The notes: generated by a model not told the origin, from the sequence alone. A stretch of DNA of 64,000 nucleotides from an uncultured Gemmatimonadales bacterium (GCA_965652025.1 CBFGTM010000007.1:19817-83816), one strand, 5' to 3'. Numbered from the stretch's first letter, positions 11,472 through 53,915 are shown. Program-made: numbers and translations.

Positions 11472-11513
11472 CCGCTTACCCGCTTACCGCTTACCGCTTA
11501 CCGCTTACCCGCC
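11472..11513. repeat. Tandem CGCTTAC array (five units at 11473-11508), i.e. GTAAGCG on the minus strand
   Basis: ccgcttac ccgcttac cgcttac cgcttac cgcttac ccgcc read directly. It lies between convergent genes, and the minus-strand GT2 gene stops at the TAA (11498-11500) inside a unit. Confidence 0.9.
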
Positions 11514-12658
11514 TCCCGATACACTCGTCCTCTCCACTCTACTCGGCGACTCCCGCGCCAGGTCGAGCGGATCCCGATGAAGAGGGTCATCAGAGCGCCG
11601 AGCGGATAGCCTGCCCCATAGATGATGGGGATCCGCATTCCCCAGCAGATCAGCATCCAAAACAAAATGGAAAAGCCAACTGCCAATCCCGCTGCCGGCA
11701 CAGGAAGCTCCAACCCGGGTGCGGCCAGGGCGACCAGCAGCGTAAACGCCGGGATCAGCCAATAGAGCATCGCCGTCACCAGCATGACCGGCACCAGTGC
11801 TCGGAGAGTAGGATTGTGAGGAAATGACCGCCGGCCCCCGAGGTAGATGTTCTTGGACCAGCCCTCCACCAGCGAGCCGAGGTTCTGGTACATCCGAGTC
11901 TCCATCAACCGCTCGGCAAAGGCGAAGTGAAGCTTCCTCCCCATCTCCAGGTAGGTCTGGGCCAGCGCCAGATCTTCCGCCACTTCCCCGCGCACCGCGG
12001 CATGGGTCCCCACGGCTTCATACGCCGGTCTCGTCGTCAGAATGAACTGTCCGTTCGCGATCACGTCGCGGGAGCGCCGAGCCCGGTTGACGCTGGCTGG
12101 ACTGTATCTGAGTGCCAACAGAAACCAGATCTGCGGCATGACAATACGCTCCCAGAAGGTGAGGCAGCGCTGCACGGGCGAGACCGTCAACAAGTCGGCA
12201 CGCTGGGTAAGCAGTCCGCCAACGGCACGCTCGAGCAGCTCGGGCTCATGCCGGGTATCGGCATCGGTGAAGAGCAACAGCTCACCCCGGGCTTCCTGGA
12301 AACCCTGAAAGCAGGCCCAGGGCTTTCCGTACCAACCCTCCGGCAATTCCTTTCCCCGGACCAGCTGGACCGGTCCCTCGGTTTGCATCTGCTCCACCAG
12401 GGTGACCGTCTGGTCGGTGGAGCGATCGTCAACCACGATCAATTCGAACGGCCGATAGGTGGTGTCGAGGATCGAGCGGACCACGGTCCGGATGGTGCCT
12501 GCTTCGTTACGAGCCGGAATGATGATGGACACCAGCGGGCCCGACGCGCGTGGTGCATCGCTCAAATTAGGGGAGCGTCGGGCCAGCCGAGGGAGAGTAA
12601 GGAACGGAAGCAGCCATGAAGCCGCCGGAAGCAGCTGGACGGCGCTGGGGAGCAACAC
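11498..12658 (-). CDS. Family 2 glycosyltransferase, membrane-bound
   Basis: 386 aa. VSIIIPARNEAGTI, LIVVDDRSTD, FTDADT (DxD) and hydrophobic C-terminal helices. The last residues GKR come from the heptamer array. Confidence 0.8.
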   Translation of the reverse strand: MLLPSAVQLLPAASWLLPFLTLPRLARRSPNLSDAPRASGPLVSIIIPARNEAGTIRTVVRSILDTTYRPFELIVVDDRSTDQTVTLVEQMQTEGPVQLVRGKELPEGWYGKPWACFQGFQEARGELLLFTDADTRHEPELLERAVGGLLTQRADLLTVSPVQRCLTFWERIVMPQIWFLLALRYSPASVNRARRSRDVIANGQFILTTRPAYEAVGTHAAVRGEVAEDLALAQTYLEMGRKLHFAFAERLMETRMYQNLGSLVEGWSKNIYLGGRRSFPHNPTLRALVPVMLVTAMLYWLIPAFTLLVALAAPGLELPVPAAGLAVGFSILFWMLICWGMRIPIIYGAGYPLGALMTLFIGIRSTWRGSRRVEWRGRVYREAGKR

Positions 12659-12672
12659 GAGGCGGAAGGAGC

Positions 12673-13233
12673 CTAGTCCACCTGCTGAGAGACCGCCTGC
12701 AGCTCCTGCTCTAAGGCATCCAGTTGCCGCTCGACGTCGCCTACATCATGGTCGGCGCTGAAGGAGGGAACCCCGTTTTGGGAAAAGAGCGTGGCGACCA
12801 ATGCGTCGGTGTATCCGACGACGGCGACCGCGACACCTTTGTCGATGACCCGGTTGAGTCGGAGCATGATCGCCATGCCTTGCCGGGCTCGCATCGCAAC
12901 CAGTACCGGGGCGAGGTTCCGGATCAGGAGCTCGCGGAGGAACTGGAGTTCTTCGACCACCTCGCCGGCAGCCAACCCCCGAGCGGAACCCACTCGACCG
13001 TAGTGTTCGCAGACATGGAACCAGACAGTATTCACCTCTCGGCGCAGCGGGCCGACCATCTCGGTCATGACGTCGAACAGCAGACGGAACTCCCGCTCAA
13101 CGGTTGCCCGCGGTATCGTGGGGGCGGCGGTCATCCGGTCTCCCAGCCAGTCTGCCCACTGGGAAACCATCGAGTCACGCATCTCCGCGATGATACGACC
13201 GGCAGCGAGCAATGCAGGCTGCGAAGCGCGCAC
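12673..13233 (-). CDS. Hypothetical protein (possibly an RsbRD-N-like helical sensor domain)
   Basis: 186 aa, helical, directly upstream of the GT2 gene on the same strand. Family assignment is weak. Confidence 0.45.
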   Translation of the reverse strand: MRASQPALLAAGRIIAEMRDSMVSQWADWLGDRMTAAPTIPRATVEREFRLLFDVMTEMVGPLRREVNTVWFHVCEHYGRVGSARGLAAGEVVEELQFLRELLIRNLAPVLVAMRARQGMAIMLRLNRVIDKGVAVAVVGYTDALVATLFSQNGVPSFSADHDVGDVERQLDALEQELQAVSQQVD

Positions 13234-13275
13234 TGATATTCTCCCTGAGAAGGCGTCCGTGAATTTAAAGCCGGG

Positions 13276-14244
13276 GTGATGATGGGGTCAAAACAACCCG
13301 TTCGACCGCCCAAACTCGGCCCCGGGAGCCGCATTGGCCTCGTTGCGCCCGCTGGCCCGCTGCTGGAAAGAGACGATCTAACCAGAGCCGAAGAACTCTG
13401 CCGTGCTCTGGGTTACGTCCCCGTACTCGGCAAGAATGCCTATCGCCGACATGGCTACCTGGCCGGTACCGATGAAGAGCGACTCGCTGATCTCAACCAG
13501 GCGCTGGGCGACTCCTCGATCGATGCAGTCTGGTGCATTCGCGGCGGCTACGGTGCCGTTCGGCTGCTCGACCGGATCGACTACGAGGCCGTTACTCGCC
13601 GTCCCAAGGCAGTCATCGGGTTTTCCGATATCACGGCGCTGCTCAATGCCGTCAGCCGGCGCGCGGGCGTGGTCACCTTCCATGGACCGGTTGCCCGGGC
13701 AGCGATGCCCCGGTTCAGCCGGGAACATTTCGAGCTGGTACTCGGCTCCGGAAGGTCAGCCGGGCGGCTAAAGCGACTTCCATTTCCGCCCGATGTGCTG
13801 GTGCCCCAGGAGAACCGGATCGTTACCCTCGTCTCCGGAACTGCGGAGGGGCCGCTTGCCGGCGGCAACCTGACGCTGCTCCATTGCCTGGTTGGTACGC
13901 CCTACTTCCCCGATCTGAACGGCGCCCTCCTGTTCCTGGAGGATGTCGGGGAAGACCTGTACAACATCGACCGCATTCTTGCCCACCTGCGCTTGATCGG
14001 TGCTCTTCGATCGCTGGCGGGAGTCATCGTCGGGCGCTTCACCCAGCTCGACCGTGCTAGCCGGGACGGCGCTCTGGGCTTCGATGAGGTCCTCGCCACC
14101 TACTTCGAGCCCCTGGGAATACCCGTCGCCTATGGCTTCCCGGTCGGCCATCTCGAAGCCCAGTGGACCATGCCGCTCGGGGTTCGAGCTCGTTTGGATG
14201 CCGGAGCCGGTGAGGTCGAGCTGCTGGAGCCGGCGGTAGTCTGA
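13276..14244 (+). CDS. LD-carboxypeptidase (peptidase S66, LdcA/MccF-like)
   Basis: GSRIGLVAPAGP, nucleophile context GFSDITALL, C-terminal FPVGHLEAQWTMPLG. Confidence 0.8.
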   Translation: MMMGSKQPVRPPKLGPGSRIGLVAPAGPLLERDDLTRAEELCRALGYVPVLGKNAYRRHGYLAGTDEERLADLNQALGDSSIDAVWCIRGGYGAVRLLDRIDYEAVTRRPKAVIGFSDITALLNAVSRRAGVVTFHGPVARAAMPRFSREHFELVLGSGRSAGRLKRLPFPPDVLVPQENRIVTLVSGTAEGPLAGGNLTLLHCLVGTPYFPDLNGALLFLEDVGEDLYNIDRILAHLRLIGALRSLAGVIVGRFTQLDRASRDGALGFDEVLATYFEPLGIPVAYGFPVGHLEAQWTMPLGVRARLDAGAGEVELLEPAVV

Positions 14245-14269
14245 GCCGGGCTCTGCTACACTTCACCGG

Positions 14270-15115
14270 ATGGCGACCCCCACCCTCAGCAAGCATTCGG
14301 TACCCGGAGCGCTGGGCCCGATTCTGATCGACCTGCGGGCCGGCGCTCGAGAAGCCTCCCGTCCCGCTGTCGTGATCGTCCACGGCTTCAAAGGATTCAA
14401 GGACTGGGGAATGTTTCCCCACCTGGCCGAGCGGCTCGCCCGCGCGGGCTTCGTAGCCCTCAGCTTCAATCTCAGTGGCAGCGGCGTGGACGATGCCGGA
14501 GAATTCTCCCTGCCCGACCGTTTCGGCCACAACACCTTTTCCGCCGAGCTCCAGGACATTGGCCGGGTCACCGACGAACTGATGTCCGGACGACTCGGCG
14601 TCGCAGTCCCCTCTGCGCTCGGCCTGCTGGGACATTCGCGCGGCGGCGGCATGGCGGTCCTTCAAACCGCGCGCGATTCCCGGGTTCAGGCGCTGGTCAC
14701 CTGGGCGGCTATCTCCGGCGTCGATCGGTGGCCGGAGAAACAGCGGACCAGCTGGCGGGCTGCCGGGCGGACTGAGATCCAGAACGCGCGCACCGGGCAG
14801 ATTCTCCCGCTCTACACCAACGTCCTGGACGACATCGAGCAAAACGCCCAGGCACTGGATATCGAAGCCGCCGCCGGTCGCATCCGGGTCCCCTGGCTCA
14901 TCATCCACGGTACCCGGGACGAGTCCGTGCCATTCGACGAGGCCGAAGCGCTCGCGGCTGCCGCACCAAGCAATCGGACCAAGATCCTCCCCATTGAAGG
15001 CGGAGGGCACACGTTCGGCGCCACCCATCCCTGGCGCTCAGCGACCTCGGAGCTCGATTCAGTCTTCGACGCCAGCGTCAGCTGGTTGTCCGAGCACCTG
15101 CAGCCGGCTCCATGA
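14270..15115 (+). CDS. Alpha/beta hydrolase
   Basis: 281 aa. VIVHGFKG, nucleophile elbow GHSRGGG, late HGTRDESVP and GGGH. Confidence 0.75.
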   Translation: MATPTLSKHSVPGALGPILIDLRAGAREASRPAVVIVHGFKGFKDWGMFPHLAERLARAGFVALSFNLSGSGVDDAGEFSLPDRFGHNTFSAELQDIGRVTDELMSGRLGVAVPSALGLLGHSRGGGMAVLQTARDSRVQALVTWAAISGVDRWPEKQRTSWRAAGRTEIQNARTGQILPLYTNVLDDIEQNAQALDIEAAAGRIRVPWLIIHGTRDESVPFDEAEALAAAAPSNRTKILPIEGGGHTFGATHPWRSATSELDSVFDASVSWLSEHLQPAP

Positions 15116-15969
15116 AGCGGCCGCGGGACATCTCGGGTCGGGTCTGCATCGTCACCGGTGCCACCCGAGGCATCGGCCGAGCCACCGCGGAAGGTCTGGC
15201 GCAACTCGGGGCCACCACCGTCCTCATCGCCCGCCGCAGAGAGGACGGAGAGACCGTTGCCCGGGAAATTGCCGCTGGGGCCTTAGTGGCTCCTGCGGTG
15301 GTCAGCGCCGACCTGTCCTCCCAGGGGTCAATCCGGGAAGCCGCCGCCGAACTGGCCGGGCGCTACCCTCGAGTGCACGTGCTCATCAACAATGCCGGTG
15401 TGATTCCCGCGCGCCGCGAGGTTACGGTGGACGGGCTCGAGCTTCAGTTTGCCGTCAACCACCTGGCCTACTTTCTCCTGACCAACCTTCTCCTGTCGCA
15501 GCTCAAGGCCGGGGCGCCGTCGCGCATCATCAATGTCTCTTCCGGTGCCCATGCCGGTGTCGGGCTCCGGTTCGACGACCTTCAATCGAAGGGCGACTAC
15601 CACCCCCGGGAGGTCTATAGCCGGTCCAAGCTGGCCAATATCCTGTTTACCTATGAGCTCGCCCGCCGGTTGAAGGGAAGCGGGGTCACCGCCAACTGTC
15701 TGAGCCCTGGTTTCGTAGCCACCGGCATGCTGGCCGACTACATGGGCGTTCCCCGGGCCGGAGGTGGGTCTGCCAGCAGCTTCGGTGCCAGCCCCGAACA
15801 GGGCGCCGAAACCAGCATATACCTCGCGACCTCACCCGATGTGGAAGGAGTTACCGGCAAGTATTTCGAGAAGGGTCGGGCCATTCGCTCGTCGCACGAA
15901 TCCTACGATGAGGCCGCCGCGCGACGGCTTTGGGAGGTGAGCGAGCGGCTGACCGGTCTGTCCGCGTGA
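15112..15969 (+). CDS. Short-chain dehydrogenase/reductase (SDR)
   Basis: VTGATRGIGRATA (TGxxxGxG), NNAG, YSRSK (YxxxK). ATGA overlap with the upstream gene. Confidence 0.9.
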   Translation: MKRPRDISGRVCIVTGATRGIGRATAEGLAQLGATTVLIARRREDGETVAREIAAGALVAPAVVSADLSSQGSIREAAAELAGRYPRVHVLINNAGVIPARREVTVDGLELQFAVNHLAYFLLTNLLLSQLKAGAPSRIINVSSGAHAGVGLRFDDLQSKGDYHPREVYSRSKLANILFTYELARRLKGSGVTANCLSPGFVATGMLADYMGVPRAGGGSASSFGASPEQGAETSIYLATSPDVEGVTGKYFEKGRAIRSSHESYDEAAARRLWEVSERLTGLSA

Positions 15970-16559: not shown

Positions 16560-16580
16560 CGAGCCTTGGATCCTGAGGCT

Positions 16581-16596
16581 CCGGGCTTTCGCCCGG
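16581..16596 (+). terminator. Small GC hairpin after the NUDIX gene
   Basis: ccgggc-tttc-gcccgg, 22 nt after the stop at 16559. No U tract follows, so weak. Confidence 0.3.
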
Positions 16597-16603
16597 GGCA
16601 AAC

Positions 16604-16645
16604 TTGACATTAGCACGGTCTTAACACAATATTAGGCTGTCCTAA
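16604..16645 (+). promoter_or_regulatory. Putative promoter (TTGACA 16604-16609) plus DtxR-type operator TTAGGctgtCCTAA (16632-16645)
   Basis: The 14-bp inverted repeat TTAGG-CTGT-CCTAA ends 1 nt before the regulator start. The half-sites match the TTAGG/CCTAA ends of DtxR/IdeR-type boxes. Confidence 0.55.
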
Positions 16646-16646
16646 A

Positions 16647-18697: not shown

Positions 18698-18719
18698 GCA
18701 GGCCCCTTCACCGGCTGAT

Positions 18720-19751: not shown

Positions 19752-20976
19752 TCTCGAACTGCCGGTACAGCCGGACAGCACTCCCTTGGCGGCCCCCTCG
19801 CGAGTGGCATCGCAGCGGGGAATTCCGCTCTGGTTCAAGGGCCTCGCGCCGCTGGTCCTGCTCGCGGCCCTGGTCGCCGTCTTTTTCCGAGTCGGTCCGC
19901 TCGGAGTCTTTCGCCAGAACTTCCCACCGGTTGAACAGCTGACGGTCGAGCGTATCCGGCTGCCGCAGGCCGGACTCATGGAAGTGGAGGTGGTCAACGG
20001 TGGGCCAGAGCCGGTCACCGTGGCGCAGGTAATGGTGGACGACGCCAACTGGGTTCACAGCCTGAACGGGAGCCGGACCCTGGAGCGGCTGGAGAGCCGG
20101 ATCATCAGCATTCCCTACCCCTGGGTAGAGGGAGAGCCTCACAGCGTGGCGCTGGTCAGCAGCACCGGCTTGACCTTCACCGGCGAGGTACCGGTCGCCA
20201 CCCGCTCACCCGCCATCGATGCCCGATACCTCACCACCTTTGCCCTGCTCGGAGTTTACGCGGGGGTGATTCCGGTCTTTATCGGCCTGCTGTGGCTGCC
20301 CTTCGTGCGATCGGTGGGACGTCGCTGGATCGATTTCCTGCTGAGCCTCACCATTGGTCTACTCATCTTCCTCGGCGTCAGCTCATTGATCGAAGCGACG
20401 GAAACCGCCAGCCTGGTGCCGGCCGCGTTCCAGGGCCATGCCCTGGTGCTGCTCGGCGCGGTGGGAACGCCACTCCTGTTGGCCGCAGTCGGCCGCTGGC
20501 GTGCAAGGGAGCGGGGGGAACGGTCGCCGCTGTACGTTGCCGCCCTCATCGCGCTGGGCATCGGACTGCACAATCTGGGAGAGGGACTGGCGATAGGTAC
20601 CTCATATGCCAGTGGAGAGATCGCGCTGGGCACCTTCCTGGTGATCGGGTTCCTGCTGCATAACACCACCGAGGGGCTCGGCATTGTTACGCCGCTGGCG
20701 CAGGAACGCCCGCGGCTCGGCTCGCTCATCCTTCTCGGGATTCTCGCCGGTCTCCCGACCGTATTGGGGGCTTGGATCGGTGGATTTACCTACTCTCCGG
20801 CATGGACCACTTTCTTCCTCGCGGTTGGGGCCGGAGCCATCGCACAGGTGGTCTACGAGTTGGGCCGACTCTTTGCCCGCCGCTCGGGAGCCGCACTCCA
20901 GGCGCCGCTTAACGTAGCCGGTGTGCTCACGGGGATGATGATCATGTACGCCACCGGGCTTCTAGTCCCGGTGTGA
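19744..20976 (+). CDS. ZIP-family metal transporter with N-terminal extracytoplasmic domain
   Basis: HNLGEGLAIG and HNTTEGLGIV (HNxxEG motifs) and multiple TM helices. ATG 19744 overlaps the oxidase stop (ATGTCTAA). The track's upstream extension to 19594 lies inside the oxidase gene. Confidence 0.7.
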   Translation: MSNLELPVQPDSTPLAAPSRVASQRGIPLWFKGLAPLVLLAALVAVFFRVGPLGVFRQNFPPVEQLTVERIRLPQAGLMEVEVVNGGPEPVTVAQVMVDDANWVHSLNGSRTLERLESRIISIPYPWVEGEPHSVALVSSTGLTFTGEVPVATRSPAIDARYLTTFALLGVYAGVIPVFIGLLWLPFVRSVGRRWIDFLLSLTIGLLIFLGVSSLIEATETASLVPAAFQGHALVLLGAVGTPLLLAAVGRWRARERGERSPLYVAALIALGIGLHNLGEGLAIGTSYASGEIALGTFLVIGFLLHNTTEGLGIVTPLAQERPRLGSLILLGILAGLPTVLGAWIGGFTYSPAWTTFFLAVGAGAIAQVVYELGRLFARRSGAALQAPLNVAGVLTGMMIMYATGLLVPV

Positions 20977-20978: not shown

Positions 20979-21088
20979 GTGAAAAGCGTGAGCGGTGAGC
21001 GGTTAGCAGTGAGCGGGAAGCATACTATGACCCGGGTTTTCTTTTCTCTTCTGCTCCTGCTCACCGTTCACCGCTCGCCGCTGACCGG
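20979..21088. repeat. Inverted pair of GTGAGCG-type heptamer arrays (left arm 20979-21021, right arm 21053-21088)
   Basis: Left arm: gtgaaaagc gtgagcg gtgagcg gttagca gtgagcg ggaagc. Reverse complement of the right arm: cggtcag cggcgag cggtgaa cggtgag caggagc. ATG 21027 lies in the spacer. Confidence 0.8.
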
Positions 21089-30892: not shown

Positions 30893-32310
30893 TGCGGTCG
30901 TATCTGGAGAACGCGCTCGGCTGGTACACCAGCTTCATTCTGGTCTTCTTTCTTGCGATCAACTCGTACTATCTGGTCCTTACTCTGGCCGGATTCTGGC
31001 GGACTCTGAGGGTTTTTAAGGAAGTGCGCCGTCCCGACCAACGCCGGTTACTGCGCTCGCCGCTGACTCCGCCGGTTTCGGTGCTGGCCCCGGCCTTCAA
31101 TGAGGAGGCCAACGTGGTCGAGAACGTGCGATCGCTGCTCATGCTGGATTACCCGCTCTACGAGGTCATACTGGTCAACGATGGCTCCCGAGACCGGACC
31201 CTGGGCCACCTGATCGACGCCTTCGATCTGCGAAAGAGCGGTCGAACCTTCGAGCAGGCGCTTCCCAGCAGACCGATCCGCGGAGTCTATGAATCTCCCA
31301 CCTATCCCAACCTGGTCGTGGTGGACAAAGTAAACGGCGGCAAGGCCGACGCCCTGAATGCCGGGCTCAATCTCAGCCTCTACCCGATCTTCTGCGCGAT
31401 AGATGCTGACTCCATTCTGGAGCCGGACGCACTGCTTCGGCTGGTCCGGCCCTTCGTGGACGCGCCCGGGGTTACCATCGCAGCCGGTGGAGTAGTGCGG
31501 GTGGCCAATGGATGCGACATCCATGGCGGCCGGGTGCACCAGGTCCGGCTCCCCCGACAGCCACTCCCGCTGATCCAGATCGTGGAATATCTCCGGGCCT
31601 TCCTGTTCGGACGGATGGGATGGAGCACCGGGAACTCCCTGCTCGTCATCTCCGGAGCGTTCGGGCTGTTCGACAAGAAGGCCGCCATCCAAGCCGGCGG
31701 CTACGCCACCGATACCGTGGGCGAGGACATGGAGCTGGTAGTGCGAATGCACCGAAACCGGCGTGAGCGCCGTCTCCCCTATCGCATAGGGTTCGTGCCC
31801 GATCCGATCTGCTGGACCGAGGTGCCGGAGAAACTCCGCACCCTGCGCCGGCAGCGCACCCGCTGGCAACGCGGCCTCATCGATACTCTCCTGCGCCACC
31901 GCGGCATGGTTGGGCGCCCTCGCTATGGAAATGTCGGGATGATTGCGTTGCCCGGGTTCCTGGTCTTCGAGATGGTCAGCCCACTGGTGGAAATGTCCGG
32001 TTACCTCTTGCTGCCGCTGCTGTGGTGGTTCGGTCTGCTCAGCCCCACGGTTGCCGGCGCCTTCTTCGTGCTGGCCCTCATGTATATGGTGCTCGTCTCC
32101 GCCCTGGCGGTGCTGCTGGAAAACCTCGCCTTCCAGAGGTATGCCAGTCTCGGTGACCTGGCCCGGCTTCTCGTCGCTGCAGTCCTGGAGAACTTCGGCT
32201 TCCGGCAACTCACCGTCTGGTGGCGAATCCAGGCTTTCTGGCAGTATCTGCGGGGAGATCTGTCCTGGGGTGCCATGGAACGTCGCGGCGTAGCGGCGAG
32301 GACTGCATGA
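30889..32310 (+). CDS. Processive family 2 glycosyltransferase (PgaC/NodC/cellulose-synthase-like polysaccharide synthase)
   Basis: Two N-terminal TMs, VSVLAPAFNEE, VILVNDGSRD, CAIDADS, GEDMEL, QRTRWQRG (QxxRW), C-terminal TM bundle. ATGA overlap with the HEAT gene. Confidence 0.85.
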   Translation: MMRSYLENALGWYTSFILVFFLAINSYYLVLTLAGFWRTLRVFKEVRRPDQRRLLRSPLTPPVSVLAPAFNEEANVVENVRSLLMLDYPLYEVILVNDGSRDRTLGHLIDAFDLRKSGRTFEQALPSRPIRGVYESPTYPNLVVVDKVNGGKADALNAGLNLSLYPIFCAIDADSILEPDALLRLVRPFVDAPGVTIAAGGVVRVANGCDIHGGRVHQVRLPRQPLPLIQIVEYLRAFLFGRMGWSTGNSLLVISGAFGLFDKKAAIQAGGYATDTVGEDMELVVRMHRNRRERRLPYRIGFVPDPICWTEVPEKLRTLRRQRTRWQRGLIDTLLRHRGMVGRPRYGNVGMIALPGFLVFEMVSPLVEMSGYLLLPLLWWFGLLSPTVAGAFFVLALMYMVLVSALAVLLENLAFQRYASLGDLARLLVAAVLENFGFRQLTVWWRIQAFWQYLRGDLSWGAMERRGVAARTA

Positions 32311-41915: not shown

Positions 41916-43745
41916 GTGCTCCGTCTTGCGATAGCCCAGGTACGGCCTCAAAAAGGGGCGTACGAGCAGAACCTCTGCCGGATAGGGGCCCTCCTCCGGG
42001 AGGTGGGCGGCTGGCCTGACCCACCCGAGCTGGTGATAGCACCGGAGACCGCGCTCACCGGTTACTTCCTGGAAGGTGGAGTACGGGAACTCGCGGTCTC
42101 CGCCGATCAACTGTTCGATGACCTGAGCCGGCAGCATGAAGAAGCAGGCATCAGTCCCCTCGATATCGCGCTCGGGTTCTACGAGGTCCACGGCAACCGG
42201 CTCTATAACTCCGGCCTGTATGCTACCCTCGGTGGGTCCGAGGCTGGGATCCGCCACATCCATCGCAAGATCTTTCTTCCAACCTACGGCGTGTTCGATG
42301 AGGAGCGATTCGTGGAGGCCGGGCGCAGCGTGCAGGCGTTCGACACCCGCTGGGGCCGAGCAGCCATTTTGATTTGCGAGGACGCCTGGCACTCGTTCAC
42401 GCCGATGCTGGCTGCGCTGGATGGAGCACAGGTCATTATCGTGCCCAGCGCCAGCCCGGCCCGGGGCGTCATCACCAGTGACGATACGGCTGGCCGGCCG
42501 GTTAGTCTGGCCCGCTGGAGCCGTCTAGCGCAGGACATAGCCGGGGAGCATGGGGTCTATGTTGCCCTCGCCCAGCTGGTTGGCTTCGAGGGTGGCAAAG
42601 CATTTCCGGGTGGCTCGATCCTGGCCGGCCCCCGCGGTGACCTGTTGGCACAGGCACCGGTCTTCCAAGAGGCGATCATCCCGGCGGTGCTGGACTTCGA
42701 GGAGATCACCCGGGCCCGGACCGACCTCCCTCTCCTGGCCGATCTCGAGATGCGACTGCCCCATCTGCTCGGGTCACTGCACGCGGCACGTAAGGAGAAA
42801 GGAAGCGGGGAAGCGGGCAAGCGGGGAAGCAAGTCCAGCGAGACCAAACCGGATGGTCGGACATCTCAACGTCCCAGCGTCCCCGCCTCCCCTCTTCCGC
42901 CCTTACCCGCCCGCTTCCACCCCCGGCAGGATCCGCTGGCCATCGATCCCGAGCTGACCCGGCGCTGGCTGGTCGAGTTCATCCGCGATGAGGTGCAGCG
43001 TCGCCGCAAGTTTGAACGAGTGATCATCGGGCTCTCCGGCGGAGTGGACAGCTCCCTGGTGGCCTATCTCGCCGCGGAGGCCCTCGGTCCGGCAAATGTG
43101 CTTGGAGTGCGAATGCCCTACCGCAGCTCGAGCCAGGAAAGTTTAGAACACGCTCAACTGGTCATCGAGGCACTGGGCATCCAGAGCCGCACCATTGACA
43201 TCAGCCTATCGGTGGACGCGCTGGCCGGTGCGATTGGTGGCGAGGTCGATCCGGCCCGTCTGGGCAACATCATGGCCCGTACCCGGATGATTACCCTCTT
43301 CGATCTGTCGGCCGCGTTCCGGGCCCTGCCGCTGGGGACCGGGAACAAGACCGAGCGGCTGTTCGGGTATTTCACCTGGCATGCGGACGATTCGCCGCCG
43401 GTCAATCCGATCGGTGATCTCTTCAAGACCCAGGTGTGGGCTCTGTCGCGGCAGGTGGGGGTACCCGAGGTCATTGTGTCCAAGCCGGCCAGCGCCGATC
43501 TCATCAAGGGCCAAACCGACGAGGGTGACTTCGGCATCTCCTATCCCCGCGCCGATGCCATCCTGCACTGGATTCTGCTGGGTTACAAAGCTCCCGAAAT
43601 CATGGCGCTCGGCTTCGAGGAGGCGGAAATCCGTCTGGTGCGCCAGCGCCTCGACTCGACTCACTGGAAGCGCCGGCTGCCCACGGTCGCCATGCTGAGT
43701 GGAACGGCGATCGGCGAATACTATCTGAGGCCGGTGGATTATTAG
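41916..43745 (+). CDS. nadE: Glutamine-dependent NAD+ synthetase (CN-hydrolase domain + NAD synthetase domain)
   Basis: N-terminal nitrilase-type domain (LVIAPETALTGY, ILICEDAWH), C-terminal PP-loop IGLSGGVDSS. GTG start. The interdomain linker carries the repeat insertion at 42790-42924. Confidence 0.9.
   Translation: MLRLAIAQVRPQKGAYEQNLCRIGALLREVGGWPDPPELVIAPETALTGYFLEGGVRELAVSADQLFDDLSRQHEEAGISPLDIALGFYEVHGNRLYNSGLYATLGGSEAGIRHIHRKIFLPTYGVFDEERFVEAGRSVQAFDTRWGRAAILICEDAWHSFTPMLAALDGAQVIIVPSASPARGVITSDDTAGRPVSLARWSRLAQDIAGEHGVYVALAQLVGFEGGKAFPGGSILAGPRGDLLAQAPVFQEAIIPAVLDFEEITRARTDLPLLADLEMRLPHLLGSLHAARKEKGSGEAGKRGSKSSETKPDGRTSQRPSVPASPLPPLPARFHPRQDPLAIDPELTRRWLVEFIRDEVQRRRKFERVIIGLSGGVDSSLVAYLAAEALGPANVLGVRMPYRSSSQESLEHAQLVIEALGIQSRTIDISLSVDALAGAIGGEVDPARLGNIMARTRMITLFDLSAAFRALPLGTGNKTERLFGYFTWHADDSPPVNPIGDLFKTQVWALSRQVGVPEVIVSKPASADLIKGQTDEGDFGISYPRADAILHWILLGYKAPEIMALGFEEAEIRLVRQRLDSTHWKRRLPTVAMLSGTAIGEYYLRPVDY
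42790..42924. repeat. Inverted pair of G(G/T)AAGCG arrays inside nadE (left arm 42790-42833, right arm 42884-42924)
   Basis: Left arm: gtaagga gaaa ggaagcg gggaagcg ggcaagcg gggaagca ag. Reverse complement of the right arm: gggggtggaagcgggcgggtaagggcggaagaggggaggcg. 50-nt spacer. Confidence 0.8.
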
Positions 43746-43776
43746 CAAATCTCCGGCCTCTCCGCCCTCCCGCCCC

Positions 43777-48628: not shown

Positions 48629-48634
48629 GCCCCT

Positions 48635-49519
48635 ATGGATGTCCGCTATTCCCGGGAAGTGATCGTCGGCGCCATCGTCACCATCGCCATTCTGGTGTTC
48701 ATCTTCGGGACCATGTGGCTGAGCGGGCGCTCGGTCTCCTCGGATAACCTGATTCACCTGCAGTTCGCCAACGTGAGCGGCCTCAAGCGGGCGTCGCCGG
48801 TTCGGGTGTCCGGGGTGAACGTAGGGAAGGTCGAGCGAATCGAGTTCGTGGATGTGGGCAAGGTGGTGGTGACTGCCAGCCTGCCACCCAAGATCCGCCC
48901 CCGGGTAGATGCGGAAGCCAAGATCGTCTCGGTCACGTTGGTTGGTGACTACGCCGTGGACTTCGACCCGGGCCGCGCCGGGGATTTCCTGGCTCCAGGC
49001 AAGGTCATACTGGGAACCCAGGACCTCGGGCTCTCGGGCCGCGCCATGGAGCTGAGCGACCGGGCGGACAGCATCCTGATCGGCGCCCAGGCCATCGTGA
49101 ACAAGGAGACCGCGGAGCAACTCCGCTCGACGCTGACGGCGCTGGAAGGCACCTTGAAGGCCGCCCAACGAACCATGCAGATCTACGGCGACTCGACTCG
49201 GGGACCTACGGCCGAGCTCACCCGCACCATGGCGGCGTTCCGCCAAGTGACTACGCGCCTCGACAGCACGCTTGCTCATCCCGCGCTCGACCGGACGCTC
49301 AGTCGCACCGATACCCTGACCGCGAACCTGGCCGCCATGACCGCCCGGCTCGACTCCACTCTCGCTGCCCTCAACCGGGGCCAGGGGACCCTCGGCAAGC
49401 TCGCGACCGACAGCGGTCTCTACTACGACATGCGGGAGGTCTCCCAGTCGATGAAGGCGTTGCTGGACGAACTGACGAAGCATCCGGGCAAGGTGGGGGT
49501 AACAGTCAAGTTGTTCTAA
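48635..49519 (+). CDS. mlaD: MlaD/MCE-domain substrate-binding protein
   Basis: N-terminal TM VIVGAIVTIAILVF, MCE core ...GLKRASPVRVSGVNVGKVERIEF..., helical C-terminus. Confidence 0.8.
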   Translation: MDVRYSREVIVGAIVTIAILVFIFGTMWLSGRSVSSDNLIHLQFANVSGLKRASPVRVSGVNVGKVERIEFVDVGKVVVTASLPPKIRPRVDAEAKIVSVTLVGDYAVDFDPGRAGDFLAPGKVILGTQDLGLSGRAMELSDRADSILIGAQAIVNKETAEQLRSTLTALEGTLKAAQRTMQIYGDSTRGPTAELTRTMAAFRQVTTRLDSTLAHPALDRTLSRTDTLTANLAAMTARLDSTLAALNRGQGTLGKLATDSGLYYDMREVSQSMKALLDELTKHPGKVGVTVKLF

Positions 49520-49521
49520 AG

Positions 49522-49584
49522 GCGTGAGTGGTAAGCGGTAAGCAGTAAGCCGGGCTTGAGGAGCTGACTGCTCACCGCTCACGC
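49522..49584. repeat. Inverted pair of GT(A/G)AGCG arrays (left arm 49522-49550, right arm 49563-49584); probable terminator hairpin
   Basis: Left arm: gcgtgag tggtaag cggtaag cagtaag c. Reverse complement of the right arm: gcgtgag cggtgag cagtcag c. Starts 3 nt after the mlaD stop. Confidence 0.8.
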
Positions 49585-49597
49585 TATCTTGTACGCC

Positions 49598-50524
49598 ATG
49601 TTAAGCGTCACTTTCCTGGGAACCGCAGCCTCCATCCCCACCATCGATCGCAACGTGGCAGGCCTGGCCGTGCAGCGGGAAGGGGAGACCATCCTCTTCG
49701 ATTGCGGCGAGGGGAACCAGCGCCAGATGATGCGCTACGGGGTGGGTTTCGCCTTTCGGGAAATCTTCTTTACCCATTACCATGCCGACCATCTTCTGGG
49801 CGTCACCGGCCTGATGCGGACCATGGGACTGCAGGACCGGACCGCGCCGGTGGTACTCTACGGGCCCAGGGGAGCTTCGCGAGTGCTCGGCGCCGCCATT
49901 TCACTGGGCATCGAGCGAAACAAGTTTCCCATCGAGATTGTGGAGATCAAACCAGGAGATTGCCTGGCCCGGGATTCCTATGACATCAAGGTCTTCGAGA
50001 CCGAGCACCGGGCGGATACGGTGGGGTATACGCTGGCCGAGCATACCCGGCTGGGCCGGTTCAACCCGGAGCGGGCGCGGGCGCTGGGGATTCCCGAGGG
50101 TCCACTCTGGGGTCAGCTCCATAAGGGGAAAGCGGTGACACTCGAGGACGGGAGTACAATCGCCCCGGGCGATCTGGTAGGCGCCCCCCGCCCCGGCCGA
50201 GTCCTGGTCTATACCGGCGATACTCGTCCTAACCTGTCGGTCATTCAGGCTTCCCGGGGCGCCGACCTCCTGATCCACGAGGCCACTTTCGGCGGTGATG
50301 AGTCGGACCGGGCCAGGGAGACCGGGCATTCGACTGCGGCCGAAGCCGCCCGGGTGGCACTCGAAGCCGGGGCCCGGCGGCTGGTTCTGACCCACATCAG
50401 CTCGCGCTATAACCGAGATACTTCGGAGCTCCTCGCCGAGGCGCGCGCAGTATTTCCGGAGACGACGATCGCACGGGACGGGATGTCCCTGGACGTGTCC
50501 TACCGGGATGCCGAGTCACACTGA
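49598..50524 (+). CDS. rnz: Ribonuclease Z (metallo-beta-lactamase fold)
   Basis: LSVTFLGTAASIP, FTHYHADHLLG (HxHxDH), THISSRY. ATG 49598 preferred over TTG 49589. Confidence 0.9.
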   Translation: MLSVTFLGTAASIPTIDRNVAGLAVQREGETILFDCGEGNQRQMMRYGVGFAFREIFFTHYHADHLLGVTGLMRTMGLQDRTAPVVLYGPRGASRVLGAAISLGIERNKFPIEIVEIKPGDCLARDSYDIKVFETEHRADTVGYTLAEHTRLGRFNPERARALGIPEGPLWGQLHKGKAVTLEDGSTIAPGDLVGAPRPGRVLVYTGDTRPNLSVIQASRGADLLIHEATFGGDESDRARETGHSTAAEAARVALEAGARRLVLTHISSRYNRDTSELLAEARAVFPETTIARDGMSLDVSYRDAESH

Positions 50525-50606
50525 CAGTGCACCCGGAATCTGGCCCTTGGCTTGCAGGTTATTACCGGGCGTCGCTTTCCATCCGTGTTCCAGGTGACCC
50601 AGGCTC

Positions 50607-51782
50607 ATGGACCACCATTCCCCGGTAAGCCGCATGTTGCGCTCTACCACGATCGCTGCATTTGCCACCGTTTGGCTGATAGGCTGCGGCAATGCCCCGG
50701 CCGGTGCTTCGGCCCAAACGGCGGACAGTACGCAGGATTGGGAGGTCCAGCCCACGCTCTGGAGTCCCCGTCCAATTTTGATCCCCCGGAGCACTCCCCC
50801 CGAGCCGCCGGCAGATTCCACGGATACCACCACCCTCCTGGACTCGATTCTGGACGCGAGCAGAAGGGCCCGGACCGCCAAGGCCGATTCCTCCACCGCC
50901 CGGTCCAAGCCCCCGACAGCTGCCGCTCTTAAGCCGAAACGAAGCGCGTTCAATATCAGTCCCAGCGACTCCGCGCGATGGCCGGTAAAGGGTCCGTCCC
51001 CGCTGCCCGAGTCGATCATACCCGAGCATCGCATCGTGGCGTTCTATGGCAACCCTCTGTCCACCCGGATGGGCATCATGGGTGAACTTCCGCCCAAGGA
51101 AATGCTGCGGCGCCTGGAGAAGGTGGCCACCGAATGGGCTGCGGCAGACAGCGGGCAAAAGGTGCTGCCGGCATTGCATCTCATTGCCACGGTTGCGCAG
51201 GGGTATCCCGGACCGGCCCGAAAGTATCGGCTCCAGATGCCTGACAGCCTCATCAATCGGGTGGCCGGGTGGGCTGAGGAGCGCGGGTGGCTGATCTTCC
51301 TCGATATCCAGGTCGGTGTGAGCACGGTCGAGGAGGAGCTGAAGGTGCTGGTGCCCTACCTCAAGCGGCCGTATGTCCACCTGGCCCTGGATCCCGAGTT
51401 TGCCATGAAGGACGGCAAGAGGCCGGGCACCGACTGGATGGGCCGGATGGATGCCTCGGAGGTGAATCACGCGGTCGAGGTGTTGGCTCGGATCGTGGAG
51501 GAACAGCAGCTGCCCCCCAAGGTGCTGGTGGTCCACCGCTTCACCCGAAACATGCTGACCAACGCCTCCCAGATCCGGCTGGATCCGCGGGTCCAGGTGG
51601 TGATCGACATGGATGGCTGGGGGCCGCCGGGAAGCAAGATGGGGGCTTACCGCTGGTTCGTGGTGCGGCATCCGGTCCAGTACACCGGATTCAAACTCTT
51701 CTACAAGAACGACAAGCCGATGATGACCCCAGAGCAGGTGCTGGAGTTGTATCCCAAGCCGATGTATATCCAATATCAGTAA
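50607..51782 (+). CDS. Hypothetical lipoprotein
   Basis: Lipobox-like WLIGCG after a hydrophobic stretch (start 50607 or ATG 50634). Pro/Ser/Thr-rich linker, then a conserved-looking ~270 aa domain of unknown family. Stop TAA 51780-51782 is part of the first GTAAGCG unit. Confidence 0.55.
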   Translation: MDHHSPVSRMLRSTTIAAFATVWLIGCGNAPAGASAQTADSTQDWEVQPTLWSPRPILIPRSTPPEPPADSTDTTTLLDSILDASRRARTAKADSSTARSKPPTAAALKPKRSAFNISPSDSARWPVKGPSPLPESIIPEHRIVAFYGNPLSTRMGIMGELPPKEMLRRLEKVATEWAAADSGQKVLPALHLIATVAQGYPGPARKYRLQMPDSLINRVAGWAEERGWLIFLDIQVGVSTVEEELKVLVPYLKRPYVHLALDPEFAMKDGKRPGTDWMGRMDASEVNHAVEVLARIVEEQQLPPKVLVVHRFTRNMLTNASQIRLDPRVQVVIDMDGWGPPGSKMGAYRWFVVRHPVQYTGFKLFYKNDKPMMTPEQVLELYPKPMYIQYQ

Positions 51783-51929
51783 GCGGGTAAGCGGGTAGGA
51801 CGGTAAGCGGGTAAGCTGCCTGACATCTGGGGGAAAAACGAGATGCGCACCGCGCTCCTGACGGCTGTCGTGCTTATTACCTCTTCCTCGAACGCCCCGC
51901 CTACCCGCTTACCTGCTTACTCACCTACC
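51779..51929. repeat. Inverted pair of GTAAGCGG arrays (left arm 51779-51816, right arm 51897-51929)
   Basis: Left arm: gtaagcgg gtaagcgg gtaggacg gtaagcgg gtaagc. Reverse complement of the right arm: ggtaggtga gtaagcag gtaagcgg gtaggcgg. The 80-nt spacer contains ATG 51843. Confidence 0.8.
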
Positions 51930-52325
51930 ATCTCCGACCTCTTCTGGCTTCAGGGCATCTGGCAGGGCCGCATTGGAGGGCGGGACTTCGAGGCTCACTA
52001 TACTGGAGCGGAAGGCGGACAGATCCTCAGCGCCAGCAAATACACCGAAGAAGGAAAGCCTTCCGGTTTCGAATTCGAGCGATTCGAGCAGCGGGGTGAT
52101 ACGCTGATGCTCACTCCGTTTCCGGAAGGCAAGTCTTCCGTGTCCTTTCCGCTGGCGGAATACGATGCCCAGAACCGCCGCGCCGTGTTCGAAAACCTGG
52201 CCCATGATTTCCCCACCCGGATCAGCTACCAGCGGGTGGCCAAGAACCACCTGACCATCCTGGTTTCCGGGCCGGGTGAGGATGGCCAGGAGCAGGTCCT
52301 CACCTATAGTCTCACTCGCAAGTAG
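51843..52325 (+). CDS. DUF6265-like secreted protein
   Basis: Signal-like MRTALLTAVVLITSSS; WLQGIWQG...; FENLAHDFPTRISYQRV matches the FENxxHDFPxRIxY motif I associate with DUF6265. Confidence 0.6.
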   Translation: MRTALLTAVVLITSSSNAPPTRLPAYSPTISDLFWLQGIWQGRIGGRDFEAHYTGAEGGQILSASKYTEEGKPSGFEFERFEQRGDTLMLTPFPEGKSSVSFPLAEYDAQNRRAVFENLAHDFPTRISYQRVAKNHLTILVSGPGEDGQEQVLTYSLTRK

Positions 52326-52394
52326 CGGTCGAGCTGCCGACTTGACGACTCCCGGCTACCACCGGTATTTAGCAACACCCATTTAGTTTTCCCG

Positions 52395-53036
52395 TTGCCT
52401 TGTGACCGCTGGCCGACTGTGAGCTCCACGTCTTCACCCACCGAATACTCCCCGTCTCGACGTCAGGCGTCCGCACCCGACGGCGCCGCCGCCGAACGCC
52501 AGCTGGCCCGCTGGATCGCCGAGGGAGACGAGGCCGCTCTGGCTGAGCTGTTCGACCTCACGGGTCCGACGCTCTACGCCGTCGCTTTTGGCATTTGTGA
52601 GAATGCCCGGCAGGCTGAAGGCGCGGTCGAGGAGACCTTCGCCGAGCTCTGGGACAAGCGCGCTTCCCTGAGCCGGCTCCCGGCGGTCTCACCCTGGCTG
52701 CTGGAACGCTGCCGCTCCTGGGCCATGGCCCTGCAATCCGCGAACGACATCCCCAATCCCAAGACCCTCCAGGACCGGGCCGGTGACGTACCACTGACCC
52801 GGCGGCTACTGCGTTGCCCGGAGCCGCTGCGGACCGCGCGGGTGCAGGCAGCCCTCGATCGGTTGGACGAGCGCGAAGATGAGGTTGTCGTGCTGGCCTC
52901 GCGAAGCGGCCGCAGCGTTGCCCAGATTGCCGACCAGCTCGGCCTGACCCCGGAAGAGGTGCACCGACTCATTCGTCACGGGCTACGATCATTGCGCCAA
53001 GAGCTGGAGCACACCGTACGGCGGGAAACGGTATAG
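52395..53036 (+). CDS. ECF-type RNA polymerase sigma factor
   Basis: Region 2 ...ALAELFDLTGPTLYAVAFGI...AEGAVEETFAELW, region 4 HTH RSGRSVAQIADQLGLTPEEVHRLIRHGLRSLR. TTG start at 52395 is uncertain. Confidence 0.75.
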   Translation: MPCDRWPTVSSTSSPTEYSPSRRQASAPDGAAAERQLARWIAEGDEAALAELFDLTGPTLYAVAFGICENARQAEGAVEETFAELWDKRASLSRLPAVSPWLLERCRSWAMALQSANDIPNPKTLQDRAGDVPLTRRLLRCPEPLRTARVQAALDRLDEREDEVVVLASRSGRSVAQIADQLGLTPEEVHRLIRHGLRSLRQELEHTVRRETV

Positions 53037-53896
53037 TGAGCCACCCGGACGCACTGGCCGACCGGCTTGGGGCCTACGCCCTCGGCCTGCCCGATGCCGA
53101 TCCCGATGGGGCCCTCGCCGCGCACTTGGCGGCTGGGTGCGACGACTGCGCCGGCGAGCTGCGCGAGCTGCGCGAAACCTCCGCGCTTCTGGCGCTCGGA
53201 ACCGAGCCGCTGACCCCGCCAGACGATCTCCGGGAACGGCTGCTGGATCGGGTGACCGGCGAGAGCTTCGTCTTCGTGTTGTCCGGATCCGGCCAGTGGC
53301 GGCAGGAGGGAGAGCTCGAGATCAAGCAGCTGTTTTCGTCGCCCGCCGGCGGAGGCACGGAACTGATCTCACTGCGGACCGGCTCCACCCTGGAGCAGGC
53401 GTATCGCCCCGGTCACCTGGGGTATGTGATCATTCGGGGCGAGCTCGACGGCGAGAGTCTGCGCTTGGGTGCTGGCGACTTTGTGCCCGCAGCGGGCAAA
53501 CTCCCCGGCCGGAAGATGTCGGTGGTGATGGATACGGTGTTGCTCGCCGTGGCGGGCTCGGAGAAGGCGTTGCCCCTCGACTCCCCCCGGGCGGTGCGCT
53601 CCGGAAAGGCGGCCTGGAATCCGATGGAGCCGAGCACTCTGGCGCTGCCGCTGGCCGGGAGCGCCCAAGAAGGGGTCGAGATTTCGCTGATGCGGATCGA
53701 GCCCGGCGGCTCCGTCGCGAGGCACCGCCACGACTGGGTGGAGGAGTTGTGTGTGATCTCAGGCGATTGCCGCTGCCAGGGCATGGAGCTGGGACCCGAA
53801 GATTACCATCGCGCCAGTCCCGGAACGAGACACGATGTTCTCACCAGCGTGGGCGGATCCACGATGGTTTACATCATTCGAAAGAGTGAGCAGTAA
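53036..53896 (+). CDS. Anti-sigma factor, ChrR-like (zf-HC2 N-terminus + cupin C-terminus)
   Basis: HLAAGCDDCAGEL (HxxxCxxC) near the N-terminus and cupin-like ISLMRIEPGGSVARHRHDWVEELCVISGD. Its start overlaps the sigma stop by 1 nt. Confidence 0.65.
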   Translation: MSHPDALADRLGAYALGLPDADPDGALAAHLAAGCDDCAGELRELRETSALLALGTEPLTPPDDLRERLLDRVTGESFVFVLSGSGQWRQEGELEIKQLFSSPAGGGTELISLRTGSTLEQAYRPGHLGYVIIRGELDGESLRLGAGDFVPAAGKLPGRKMSVVMDTVLLAVAGSEKALPLDSPRAVRSGKAAWNPMEPSTLALPLAGSAQEGVEISLMRIEPGGSVARHRHDWVEELCVISGDCRCQGMELGPEDYHRASPGTRHDVLTSVGGSTMVYIIRKSEQ

Positions 53897-53915
53897 GCTT
53901 AAGCTTACTACCTCG
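53886..53915. terminator. Minimal GTAAGC palindrome between convergent genes (perfect 18-bp palindrome 53892-53909)
   Basis: AGTAAGCTTAAGCTTACT is its own reverse complement. It contains the TAA stop (53894-53896) of the plus-strand gene and the stop (53908-53910) of the minus-strand gene. Confidence 0.6.

Follow-up and report, generated by a model that had tools for sequence, protein, structure and literature searches.

What are the short tandem arrays found at gene boundaries in a soil bacterium of the order Gemmatimonadales, and what shapes them? The window, by which we mean the whole stretch of DNA analysed (GCA_965652025.1, CBFGTM010000007.1:19817-83816; 64 kb, 64% G+C), carries ordinary chromosomal genes, and in it the original prediction, made from the sequence alone, located arrays of the unit GT(A/G)AGCG(G) at 11472-11513, 20979-21088, 42790-42924, 49522-49584, 51779-51929 and 53886-53915 (loci 1 to 6). 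They were taken for all-frame translation stops combined with transcription terminators, possibly mobile. Arrays of this type are present at all six loci and far exceed chance. We consider that they are probably inverted short-period arrays set at stop codons, vertically inherited and remodelled in place, which fold away as hairpins. They are best filed in the heptameric class of long simple sequence repeats (SSRs) known from Xanthomonas, Nostoc and Beggiatoaceae; what is new here is the unit and the phylum, and the fact that the arms co-evolve and shape coding sequence.

Arrays in the Window

The string AGCG-N0-1-GTRAGCG occurs 6 times in the window, against 0.30 expected, and none of 100 dinucleotide-preserving shuffles reaches this number. 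Arms that have three or more units and no more than one mismatch likewise number 6, compared with 0.12 expected (maximum 1) in third-order Markov sequences, and more tolerant chaining yields nine arms, chance-level ones at 31045 and 63901 included. The arrays are a real, non-random family. The window holds about 10 of them, approximately one per 6 kb, and their arms have a period of 7 or 8 and 3 to 5.3 copies each (Table 1).

Inverted pairs were found at five of the six loci, as had been predicted, with the qualification that the right arm of locus 3 is degenerate and that locus 6 is only a mini-palindrome. Very stable hairpins are predicted for four pairs. Pairing of the arms into long hairpins holds for loci 2, 4 and 5, which fold exceptionally well (-56.2 kcal/mol, z -6.8; -38.4 kcal/mol, z -5.4; and -73.0 kcal/mol, z -6.5, respectively). 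It is weaker at loci 3 (z -2.8) and 6 (z -3.8), and fails at locus 1, which has neither a partner arm nor a predicted structure (folding z +0.65). The gene-boundary position is likewise borne out at five loci, where an arm contains a stop codon or lies 0-3 nt from one, but not at locus 3 (42790-42924), which belongs, in frame, to the coding sequence of the NAD synthetase gene nadE (41916-43745).

The stop codons assigned to array units are real. The TAA of a minus-strand glycosyltransferase gene (11498-11500) lies within a unit of locus 1, and the first unit of the locus 5 G-rich arm includes the TAA (51780-51782) of a gene coding for a 391-residue protein. At locus 6, the TAA of a ChrR-like gene (53894-53896) meets the TAG of a convergent TPR gene (53908-53910, minus strand). 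The first base of the locus 4 G-rich arm is 2 nt past the TAA (49517-49519) of an MlaD gene. At locus 2, the 50-nt spacer between a ZIP transporter gene and an outer-membrane protein gene is wholly taken up by the G-rich arm, in the order GTGAAAAGC, GTGAGCG GTGAGCG GTTAGCA GTGAGCG, GGAAGC; the final GGGAAG unit of this arm resembles a Shine-Dalgarno sequence and, stopping 8 nt short of the ATG at 21027, has the spacing of one.

The arithmetic behind the coding property of the GTRAGCG unit is correct: one strand brings TAA or TGA into every frame within three units and its complement is free of stops. Genes do finish at the stop-bearing arm or within it, and the C-rich arms are translated. The stop-free stretches at 21053-21088 and 51897-51929 lie inside genes beginning at ATG 21027 and ATG 51843, and translation of the corresponding arms (about 21049-21088, and 51896-51929) follows from independent gene calls on other assemblies of the same species, which start at these two codons. 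At both loci, 2 and 5, the hairpin loop takes in the ribosome-binding site of the host gene, its ATG and the codons of its signal peptide. At locus 4, the downstream ATG (49598) is that of a metallo-beta-lactamase-fold gene. No Rfam family was found for the arrays at gathering thresholds, nor at E<=1 around loci 4-6.

Table 1. Array arms of the window and two possible relatives.
Feature	Coordinates	Strand	Context
Locus 1, single arm, five GTAAGCG(G) units	11473..11508	-	between convergent genes
Locus 2, G-rich 5' arm	20979..21021	+	begins 2 nt past the ZIP transporter TGA (20974-20976)
Locus 2, C-rich 3' arm	21049..21088	+	within the Phenol_MetA_deg-family outer-membrane protein gene (ATG 21027)
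Locus 3, G-rich arm, unit GGAAGCGG, 3.8 units	42801..42830	+	inside nadE
Locus 3, degenerate C-rich arm, read ..PSVPASPLPPLPARF..	42870..42924	+	inside nadE; weak pairing with 42801-42830
Locus 4, G-rich 5' arm, GCGTGAGTG GTAAGCG GTAAGCA GTAAGCC	49522..49551	+	
Locus 4, C-rich 3' arm, TGACTGCTCACCGCTCACGC	49565..49584	+	ends 13 nt before ATG 49598
Locus 5, G-rich 5' arm, unit GTAAGCGG, 4.8 units	51779..51817	+	
Locus 5, C-rich 3' arm	51896..51929	+	inside the DUF6265 gene (ATG 51843)
Locus 6, mini-palindrome GTGAGCAGTAAGC TTAAGCTTACTACCTCG, 30 nt	53886..53915		remnant-sized family member
Possible relative, unpaired C-rich array TCTCCGCCC, 3 units	43750..43775	+	between the nadE stop and ATG 43777
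Possible relative, single (GCGAAGC)x4 array	60980..61007	+	intergenic; no significant structure (z -0.67)

Arrays at Orthologous Sites

Three orthologous sites were compared among about 200 relatives, and at all three the arrays keep to the same gene boundary, where they mostly start at the upstream stop codon or inside it. The first site, 3' of the 391-residue protein gene (locus 5), was followed in about 60 metagenomic relatives. A stop-linked array is present in most of those with a protein identity of at least roughly 64%, beginning for instance as CAGTAA followed by GCGGGTAAGCGG, or CAGTAG followed by GCGGGTAGGCGG. The unit differs from lineage to lineage (GTAAGCGG, GGGGAAGC, GGGACAGC, GGGGCAGC, GGGTAGGC, GGTCGGGC and the 9-mer GGACGGAGA), and the right arm follows the left arm of its own lineage, with 0.71 cyclic mismatches between consensus units, compared with 2.01 against the left arms of other lineages (permutation p<1e-4). 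A stop-bearing unit occurs in only 3 of the 17 lineages; GGGGAAGC, GGGACAGC, GGGGCAGC and similar units are stop-free. In relatives in which the DUF6265 gene comes next, the right arm corresponds to a variable Pro/Ser-rich stretch leading from the signal peptide to a conserved I(S/T)DLSWLEG motif.

With regard to the genes that follow this site, the window and its closer relatives carry a three-gene cassette coding for the DUF6265 protein, an ECF sigma factor and a ChrR-like anti-sigma factor (51843-53896), the boundaries of which fall on array arms. The cassette is absent in many of the contigs L148-L169, where the 391-residue protein gene is followed by a single array pair and then by the convergent TPR gene.

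The second site separates the MlaD gene from the metallo-beta-lactamase-fold gene (locus 4). In some relatives the spacer is empty and measures 4-33 nt. The minimal form, seen in one relative, is a single-unit stem (GCGTGAGCG...CGTTCACGC), and larger forms comprise 1+2, 4+1, 4+3 (the window) and 3+3 (GTGAACA) units; octamer arrays of GGGACAGC, GGGGCAGC or GGCGGACA are found in further lineages. The presence/absence polymorphism envisaged in the original prediction is thus seen between orthologous spacers, along with intermediates from one unit to several. When filled and empty MlaD spacers were compared, no target-site duplication was detected. In other respects, a conserved C-rich stretch, (T)ATCTTCCCCCC, immediately precedes the ATG of the metallo-beta-lactamase-fold gene in the window (49585-49600) and in the orthologues from L127 to L197; it lacks a Shine-Dalgarno-like purine run, which suggests an unusual context for translation initiation.

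At the third site, between the ZIP and outer-membrane protein genes (locus 2), translated arrays can be recognised at the N-termini of 120 homologues. Among the 41 homologues whose called open reading frame (ORF) extends into the upstream arm, 13 combine an upstream GTGAGCG (translated VSGER) with a downstream CGCTCAC (PLTAYRSPLT), 24 combine an upstream GTGAACG (VNGER) with a downstream CGTTCAC (LFTVH), and only four are mixed (Fisher p=4e-7). The same co-variation of arm types was seen on DNA in L209 and L210, in one of which the only in-frame starts are GTG codons inside the G-rich arm. The window, L209 and L210 all have a third unit of the form GTTA.., which removes the in-frame TGA, either through selection for an open frame or through shared ancestry. 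Gene callers often start the outer-membrane protein homologues (P0123-P0240) at a GTG inside the G-rich arm, and such over-extended ORFs result in false N-termini such as VSGERLAVSGK and VNGERLTVNG (L209:601, L210:601).

Between the window and L127, whose proteins are 97% identical, DNA identity amounts to 92-95% in the flanking genes and to only 56% in the array regions, and the changes recur across units, as in GTAAGCG x3 versus GTGAGCG x3. Among six contigs of the same species, which differ by a few single-nucleotide polymorphisms (SNPs) per kb, no array indels were found, and the three SNPs that fall in arrays include no compensatory one. The arrays are therefore steady within the population, yet undergo a concerted turnover that is much faster than that of neighbouring genes. 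Hypervariable repeats acting in the manner of contingency loci were considered and are ruled out by the lack of indels in these six contigs.

Array Arms as Coding Sequence

The array of locus 3 lies in the linker that joins the CN_hydrolase and NAD_synthase domains of NadE (residues ~292-336), and both domains are intact. This linker, made of array units with a GSGEAGKRGS-type repeat on the left and a PLPPLPARF-type sequence on the right, is about 50 residues longer than that of the Streptomyces enzyme (PDB 3n05). Its length differs widely among 120 Gemmatimonadales homologues, in which the alignment segment including the linker measures 73-101 residues and the full-length proteins 582-644 residues. 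In the window, the G-rich arm is read as ..GSGEAGKRGS... In the outer-membrane protein, it is the hydrophobic core of the signal peptide that comes from the C-rich arm (..LLLLLTVHRSPLTG; partner arm, 20979-21021), and in the DUF6265 protein the C-rich arm codes for a linker behind the signal peptide (..NAPPTRLPAYSPT; partner arm, 51779-51817). The best homologues of both NadE and the outer-membrane protein are annotated as Gemmatimonadales.

Anchoring, Polarity and Distribution

Taking the window and all fetched loci together, and whatever the unit, the G-rich arm is the 5' one in 78 pairs and the C-rich arm in 5. Since arrays bearing stops end spurious ORFs by themselves, anchoring was assessed on coding-like ORFs and on stop-free arms. 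The stop of a coding-like ORF lies 0-12 nt upstream of 56 of 184 five-prime arms, compared with 2.7 at random, and of 24 of the 62 arms devoid of any stop triplet, compared with 0.9 at random. In pairs built of other units, stops are carried by 16/40 five-prime and 12/40 three-prime arms.

A scan for three consecutive units, in one genome per species, returned 24 Gemmatimonadota among the 120 matches listed, and also among the matches listed, inverted pairs with the GTRAGCG unit were found in Rhodocyclaceae/Thiobacillus, Pyrinomonadaceae, Saprospiraceae and Lysobacterales. The unit is not specific to a genome, as different units occupy different sites of single contigs; this mixture rules out a genome-specific unit, as would be dictated by a template acting in trans.

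The clearest case is L048 (DASWNP010000031.1, 600-7100), a contig of a Pyrinomonadaceae metagenome-assembled genome (MAG), in which almost every spacer of the 8-kb S10/spc ribosomal protein operon (S3, L16, S17, L5, S8, L6, L18, S5, L15) harbours a different inverted heptamer pair, with the units GGACGAT, GTGAATG, GTGAGCG, CAATCAG and AATCGTG. The layout is a stop codon, a purine-rich arm, a loop, a pyrimidine-rich arm, 12-19 nt including a Shine-Dalgarno sequence, and the ATG. Each hairpin spans exactly the distance from the stop codon to just before the next Shine-Dalgarno site. In a Pseudoxanthomonas MAG (L076:3343-3498), the inverted pair GGGAACC / TTCCCCG corresponds to the Xanthomonas-type unit discussed below; as this locus was fetched for its GTRAGCG match, both types of unit co-exist in one genome.

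A Proposed Mechanism

The reading that we favour builds on the observed architecture, stop anchoring, polarity, rapid turnover in place, arm co-variation and arm translation. A G-rich arm lies directly past a stop codon, and its complementary C-rich arm mostly just before the next gene or in its first codons, so that the two can pair in several registers into a long hairpin. Each array keeps to one gene boundary and would be inherited vertically in Gemmatimonadales, rather than transposed ready-made. Remodelling takes place on the spot, by gain, loss and homogenisation of units, for which replication slippage appears to be the simplest cause, and complementarity would be upheld either by selection for pairing or by templated correction of one arm by the other. 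The hairpin, whether formed by the transcript or by single-stranded DNA, may tuck the insert away and leave the upstream stop codon and the downstream initiation region adjacent to each other, and we can propose that operons, too, tolerate the insert for this reason. The hairpin may in addition shield mRNA 3' ends or weakly attenuate transcription, in the manner of repetitive extragenic palindromic (REP) sequences. An arm that overlaps a gene is simply translated, the C-rich one into signal-peptide or linker residues, and the G-rich arm can provide a GTG start, a stretch resembling a Shine-Dalgarno sequence or the stop codon. On this reading, the TAA/TGA triplets of GTRAGCG are a by-product of that particular unit, and the all-frame stop property is incidental, since only 3 of the 17 orthologous arrays at the first site have a stop-bearing unit.

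Several observations weigh against this reading. The counts are phylogenetically non-independent, many pairs being orthologues at a few sites, so that the p-values given above overstate the support and represent upper bounds of it. The MlaD-site hairpin is missing in relatives of intermediate distance (L128, L131-L134) and present in closer and more distant ones, a patchiness which requires losses or repeated gains. The complementarity of the arms is imperfect in L148, L159, L160 and L163. RNA duplex energies separate own arms (-57.8 kcal/mol) poorly from cross-locus combinations (-51.1 kcal/mol), as every G-rich arm can pair with every C-rich one; the correspondence of own arms was for this reason assessed by k-mer and consensus-unit comparison instead. 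Furthermore, the GTRAGCG unit recurs at six window loci and in several phyla, which a purely in-place origin does not predict. Lastly, the G-rich-first polarity is unexplained by any of the tests run. It might serve to keep false Shine-Dalgarno sequences or GTG starts away from true starts, or it might stem from the seeding of the array from the purine-rich context of stop codons.

Alternative Explanations

In the first alternative, which follows the original prediction, each array is an all-frame translation stop joined to a transcription terminator; termination would be bidirectional, and the unit would be selected because TAA/TGA walks through the frames. This would account for the four window gene ends that fall in or at a unit, for the very stable hairpins, and for the position of the five intergenic loci, all at plausible ends of transcription units. 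The arrays also resemble Rho-independent terminators in forming a GC-rich stem-loop right past the stop codon, with symmetrical A-rich/T-rich flanks at some copies: in Gemmatimonadota, A is enriched on the 5' side at 3-6 nt out from the arms (0.38-0.50 versus ~0.2), on the other strand a short T run such as CACGCTTTAT or GCTTTTC follows the C-rich arm, and TATCTTGT follows locus 4. The same coding asymmetry has moreover been proposed to shape the distribution of another heptameric repeat, TAACTGA (PMC4679880). We nevertheless regard this explanation as unlikely. Stops do not act as the organising principle, given the small share of stop-bearing units at the first orthologous site, their presence in only a minority of arms built of other units, and the equally strong anchoring of stop-free arms at stop codons. 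Adjoining stop codons confound the A/T-rich flanks and explain them in part, and the flanks were not counted as evidence.

As for termination, a scan of the 41-56 kb region, which accepted loops of 3-8 nt only and left long-loop pairs outside its scope, returned nine terminator-like sites, a number not above that of shuffled sequences, and none at an array. A U-rich tail could be recognised by eye at locus 4 only (UAUCUUGU), and there is no canonical U-tract. The arrays further differ from Rho-independent terminators in their stems of 20-40 bp, in loops of up to 80 nt that can hold a start codon, and in copies located inside operons and coding sequence: the 3' arm lies within a translated gene at loci 2, 3 and 5, and the hairpins of L048 separate most genes of an operon that is normally co-transcribed. 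The lack of a canonical U-tract, together with hairpins inside a ribosomal protein operon, argues against efficient termination, and a role as efficient terminators appears doubtful on these sequence grounds.

The second explanation is that of a mobile element, i.e. a MITE (miniature inverted-repeat transposable element) or a REP- or REPIN-like element, with heptamer arrays as terminal inverted repeats and a transposase acting in trans. The GTRAGCG unit is indeed found at no fewer than six loci in 64 kb and, among the matches listed, in Gemmatimonadota, Betaproteobacteria, Acidobacteriota and Bacteroidota; the MlaD site is polymorphic for presence or absence among close relatives; a dispersed 66-nt palindrome (GTCACCCTGAGCGAAGCGAAGGGG..) is often flanked by arrays in relatives; and horizontal transfer was proposed by MacGregor for the TAACTGA repeats (PMC4679880). 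However, the absence of target-site duplications and of a conserved internal sequence, the loops being unrelated to one another, together with gene starts inside the loops (host start codons and conserved signal-peptide codons), leaves this proposal unsupported. At orthologous sites the array is kept while its unit changes, in a graded series from one unit to several, and in L048 a single operon has a different unit in each spacer. We therefore consider mobility of this kind quite unlikely.

The comparison with named elements goes in the same direction. REP sequences, bacterial interspersed mosaic elements and REPINs are also abundant GC-rich hairpins located past stops and between convergent genes, with a proposed function in 3'-end protection or attenuation. 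They consist, however, of a single conserved palindrome of 20-40 nt with a GTAG-type head, spread by the REP-associated tyrosine transposase (RAYT), whereas the present arrays vary in unit and copy number and have no conserved palindrome; no transposase or RAYT was found among the 40 window proteins scanned. MITEs (Correia, RUP, Nezha) share the inverted repeats and the presence/absence polymorphism, and Rickettsia palindromic elements (RPEs) have in common an in-frame copy that does not disrupt a conserved gene (here nadE). Unlike both, the arrays have no target-site duplication, conserved core or fixed length, and their units change in place; an RPE is a dispersed, conserved element of ~100-150 bp, and no conserved element sequence is present here.

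The 66-nt near-perfect palindrome (GTCACCCTGAGCGAAGCGAAGGGGCCATG...CATGCCCCCTTCGCTTCGCTCAGGGTGAC) deserves separate mention, as it looks like a true REP/MITE-type element. Sixteen copies were found in relatives, four of them in the 5.6-kb contig L170 (890-955, 1942-2007, 2682-2747 and 4183-4248) and others in L171, L174, L175, L177, L183, L096, L156 and L168, and six copies are nested between or next to arrays. No paper containing its core sequence was found. The possibility that this palindrome (GTCACCCTGAG..) forms the core of a composite element with the arrays was rejected, as 10 of the 16 copies are not near arrays and none is present in the window.

Very unlikely, finally, is a function of the single-stranded G-rich repeat itself, rather than of the hairpin, as a G-quadruplex (G4) or other non-B element or as an array of protein-binding sites (S1, CsrA, cold-shock or Chi-like): the 8-nt units GGGTAAGC, GGGGAAGC and GGGACAGC do present tracts of G3 or longer every 8 nt, usually over 3-5 or more units, the polarity of the G-rich strand relative to genes is always the same and unpaired single arms exist (locus 1), but the 7-nt GTRAGCG unit has GG runs only, the AT-rich units GTGAATG and AATCGTG of L048 are incapable of forming G4, the unit is not conserved at orthologous sites, and the arms co-vary to stay complementary, which a single-strand binding site does not need. 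The AGCGG/GAAGCGG core may resemble the Chi sites of Firmicutes. Relatives of the arrays in Xanthomonas and Nostoc form G4 in vitro (PMC4692102); G4 formation is probably not common to the GTRAGCG and Xanthomonas arrays, since the 7-nt form is without G3 tracts.

Relation to Known Heptameric Repeats

The question of whether this family had already been described, left open in the original prediction, receives a divided answer: the heptamer class is known (PMC4692102, PMC4679880), and our literature search found no paper in which a repeat is built of GTAAGCG or GTGAGCG, nor any dealing with repeats of this kind in Gemmatimonadota. The closest counterpart is the GGGAATC repeat of Xanthomonas, with 186 and 183 arrays in two genomes, of which about 90% are intergenic, at a mean of 28 nt from the upstream ORF and mostly of four units (range 2-26), as stated by Rehm et al. 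(2015, PMC4692102). The same paper mentions 70-75 convergent inverted pairs per genome, capable of forming stem-loops, variation of the arrays between species at the same sites, and intergenic heptamer arrays of GGGGA(C/T)T in Nostoc; it identifies no function (PMC4692102). The likeness to the present arrays includes tandem 7-nt units in about four copies, an intergenic location near the end of the upstream ORF, convergent inverted pairs, and variation in length and sequence at the same intergenic sites. It extends to the strand, the G-rich one being the coding strand downstream of ORFs and the non-coding strand upstream of them. The differences lie in the unit, GTRAGCG(G) and GCGGGNNN variants, and in the phylum. 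Moreover, arm co-variation, stop anchoring and arms that serve as codons of signal peptides or linkers, as observed here, are not, to our reading, reported in PMC4692102.

The related STRR (short tandemly repeated repetitive) sequences of cyanobacteria belong to the same background. TAACTGA direct repeats occur in marine Beggiatoaceae, Cyanobacteria and Bacteroidetes (MacGregor 2015, PMC4679880); in one orientation they place stops in all frames, in the other they can be translated (LSVISYQ), and copies are also found within ribosomal protein operons (PMC4679880). They share with the present arrays their intergenic heptamers in 2-6 copies, the same coding asymmetry and a patchy distribution over several phyla. 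They differ in being direct repeats, with only one inverted set reported in the Maribeggiatoa genome and no predicted secondary structure, in lying mostly just before start codons, and in having a single fixed unit across taxa. Mrazek et al. (2007), as cited in both PMC4679880 and PMC4692102, found heptanucleotide long SSRs to be over-represented and put forward polymerase slippage; heptanucleotides are reported to be the commonest long simple repeats of repeat-rich bacterial genomes. Neither the Xanthomonas/Nostoc study (PMC4692102) nor the Beggiatoaceae one (PMC4679880) arrives at a function or mechanism.

Other Features of the Window

The two possible relatives of the family listed in Table 1 are unpaired, and a small hairpin (z -2.4) forms around the nadE stop codon at the 43750-43775 array. 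On the minus strand, at 5331-10686, a gene coding for a fusion of an Eco57I-type N6-adenine methylase with a restriction part (1007 residues) adjoins one for an SNF2/helicase-C protein (844 residues). These genes may represent a type IIG or defence-island pair; the G+C content by codon position is ambiguous at ~5.4-7.6 kb. Two adjacent tRNA genes, tRNA-Ala(CGC) and tRNA-Gln(CTG), are present at 59468-59626 and are the only Rfam and ARAGORN matches of the window.

Implications

In practical terms, signal peptides and domain linkers can be shaped by a pairing constraint that is itself non-coding. The three orthologous sites allow the evolution of such arrays to be watched, and with it the choice between slippage with correction and selection on an RNA hairpin, the reason for a period of 7-8, and that for the polarity.

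A broader reading, which we put forward tentatively and hold to be possible rather than probable, is that the arrays belong to a class of self-renewing hairpins spread over several phyla, which would be made at stop codons by polar slippage and arm-to-arm templating. The architecture of such hairpins, namely, the period, the inversion, the G-rich arm coming first and the span from stop to start, would be conserved, and their sequence would not. Since the arms must stay complementary, the pairing constraint would then dictate the residues encoded at each overlap of an arm with a gene, as exemplified by the PLTAYRSPLT versus LFTVH signal peptides and the NadE linker, as well as by GTG starts in G-rich arms and Shine-Dalgarno-like stretches. 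If true, this would answer the old puzzle of why heptamers dominate the long SSRs of bacteria, and the arrays would represent a steady supply of new signal-peptide and linker sequence.

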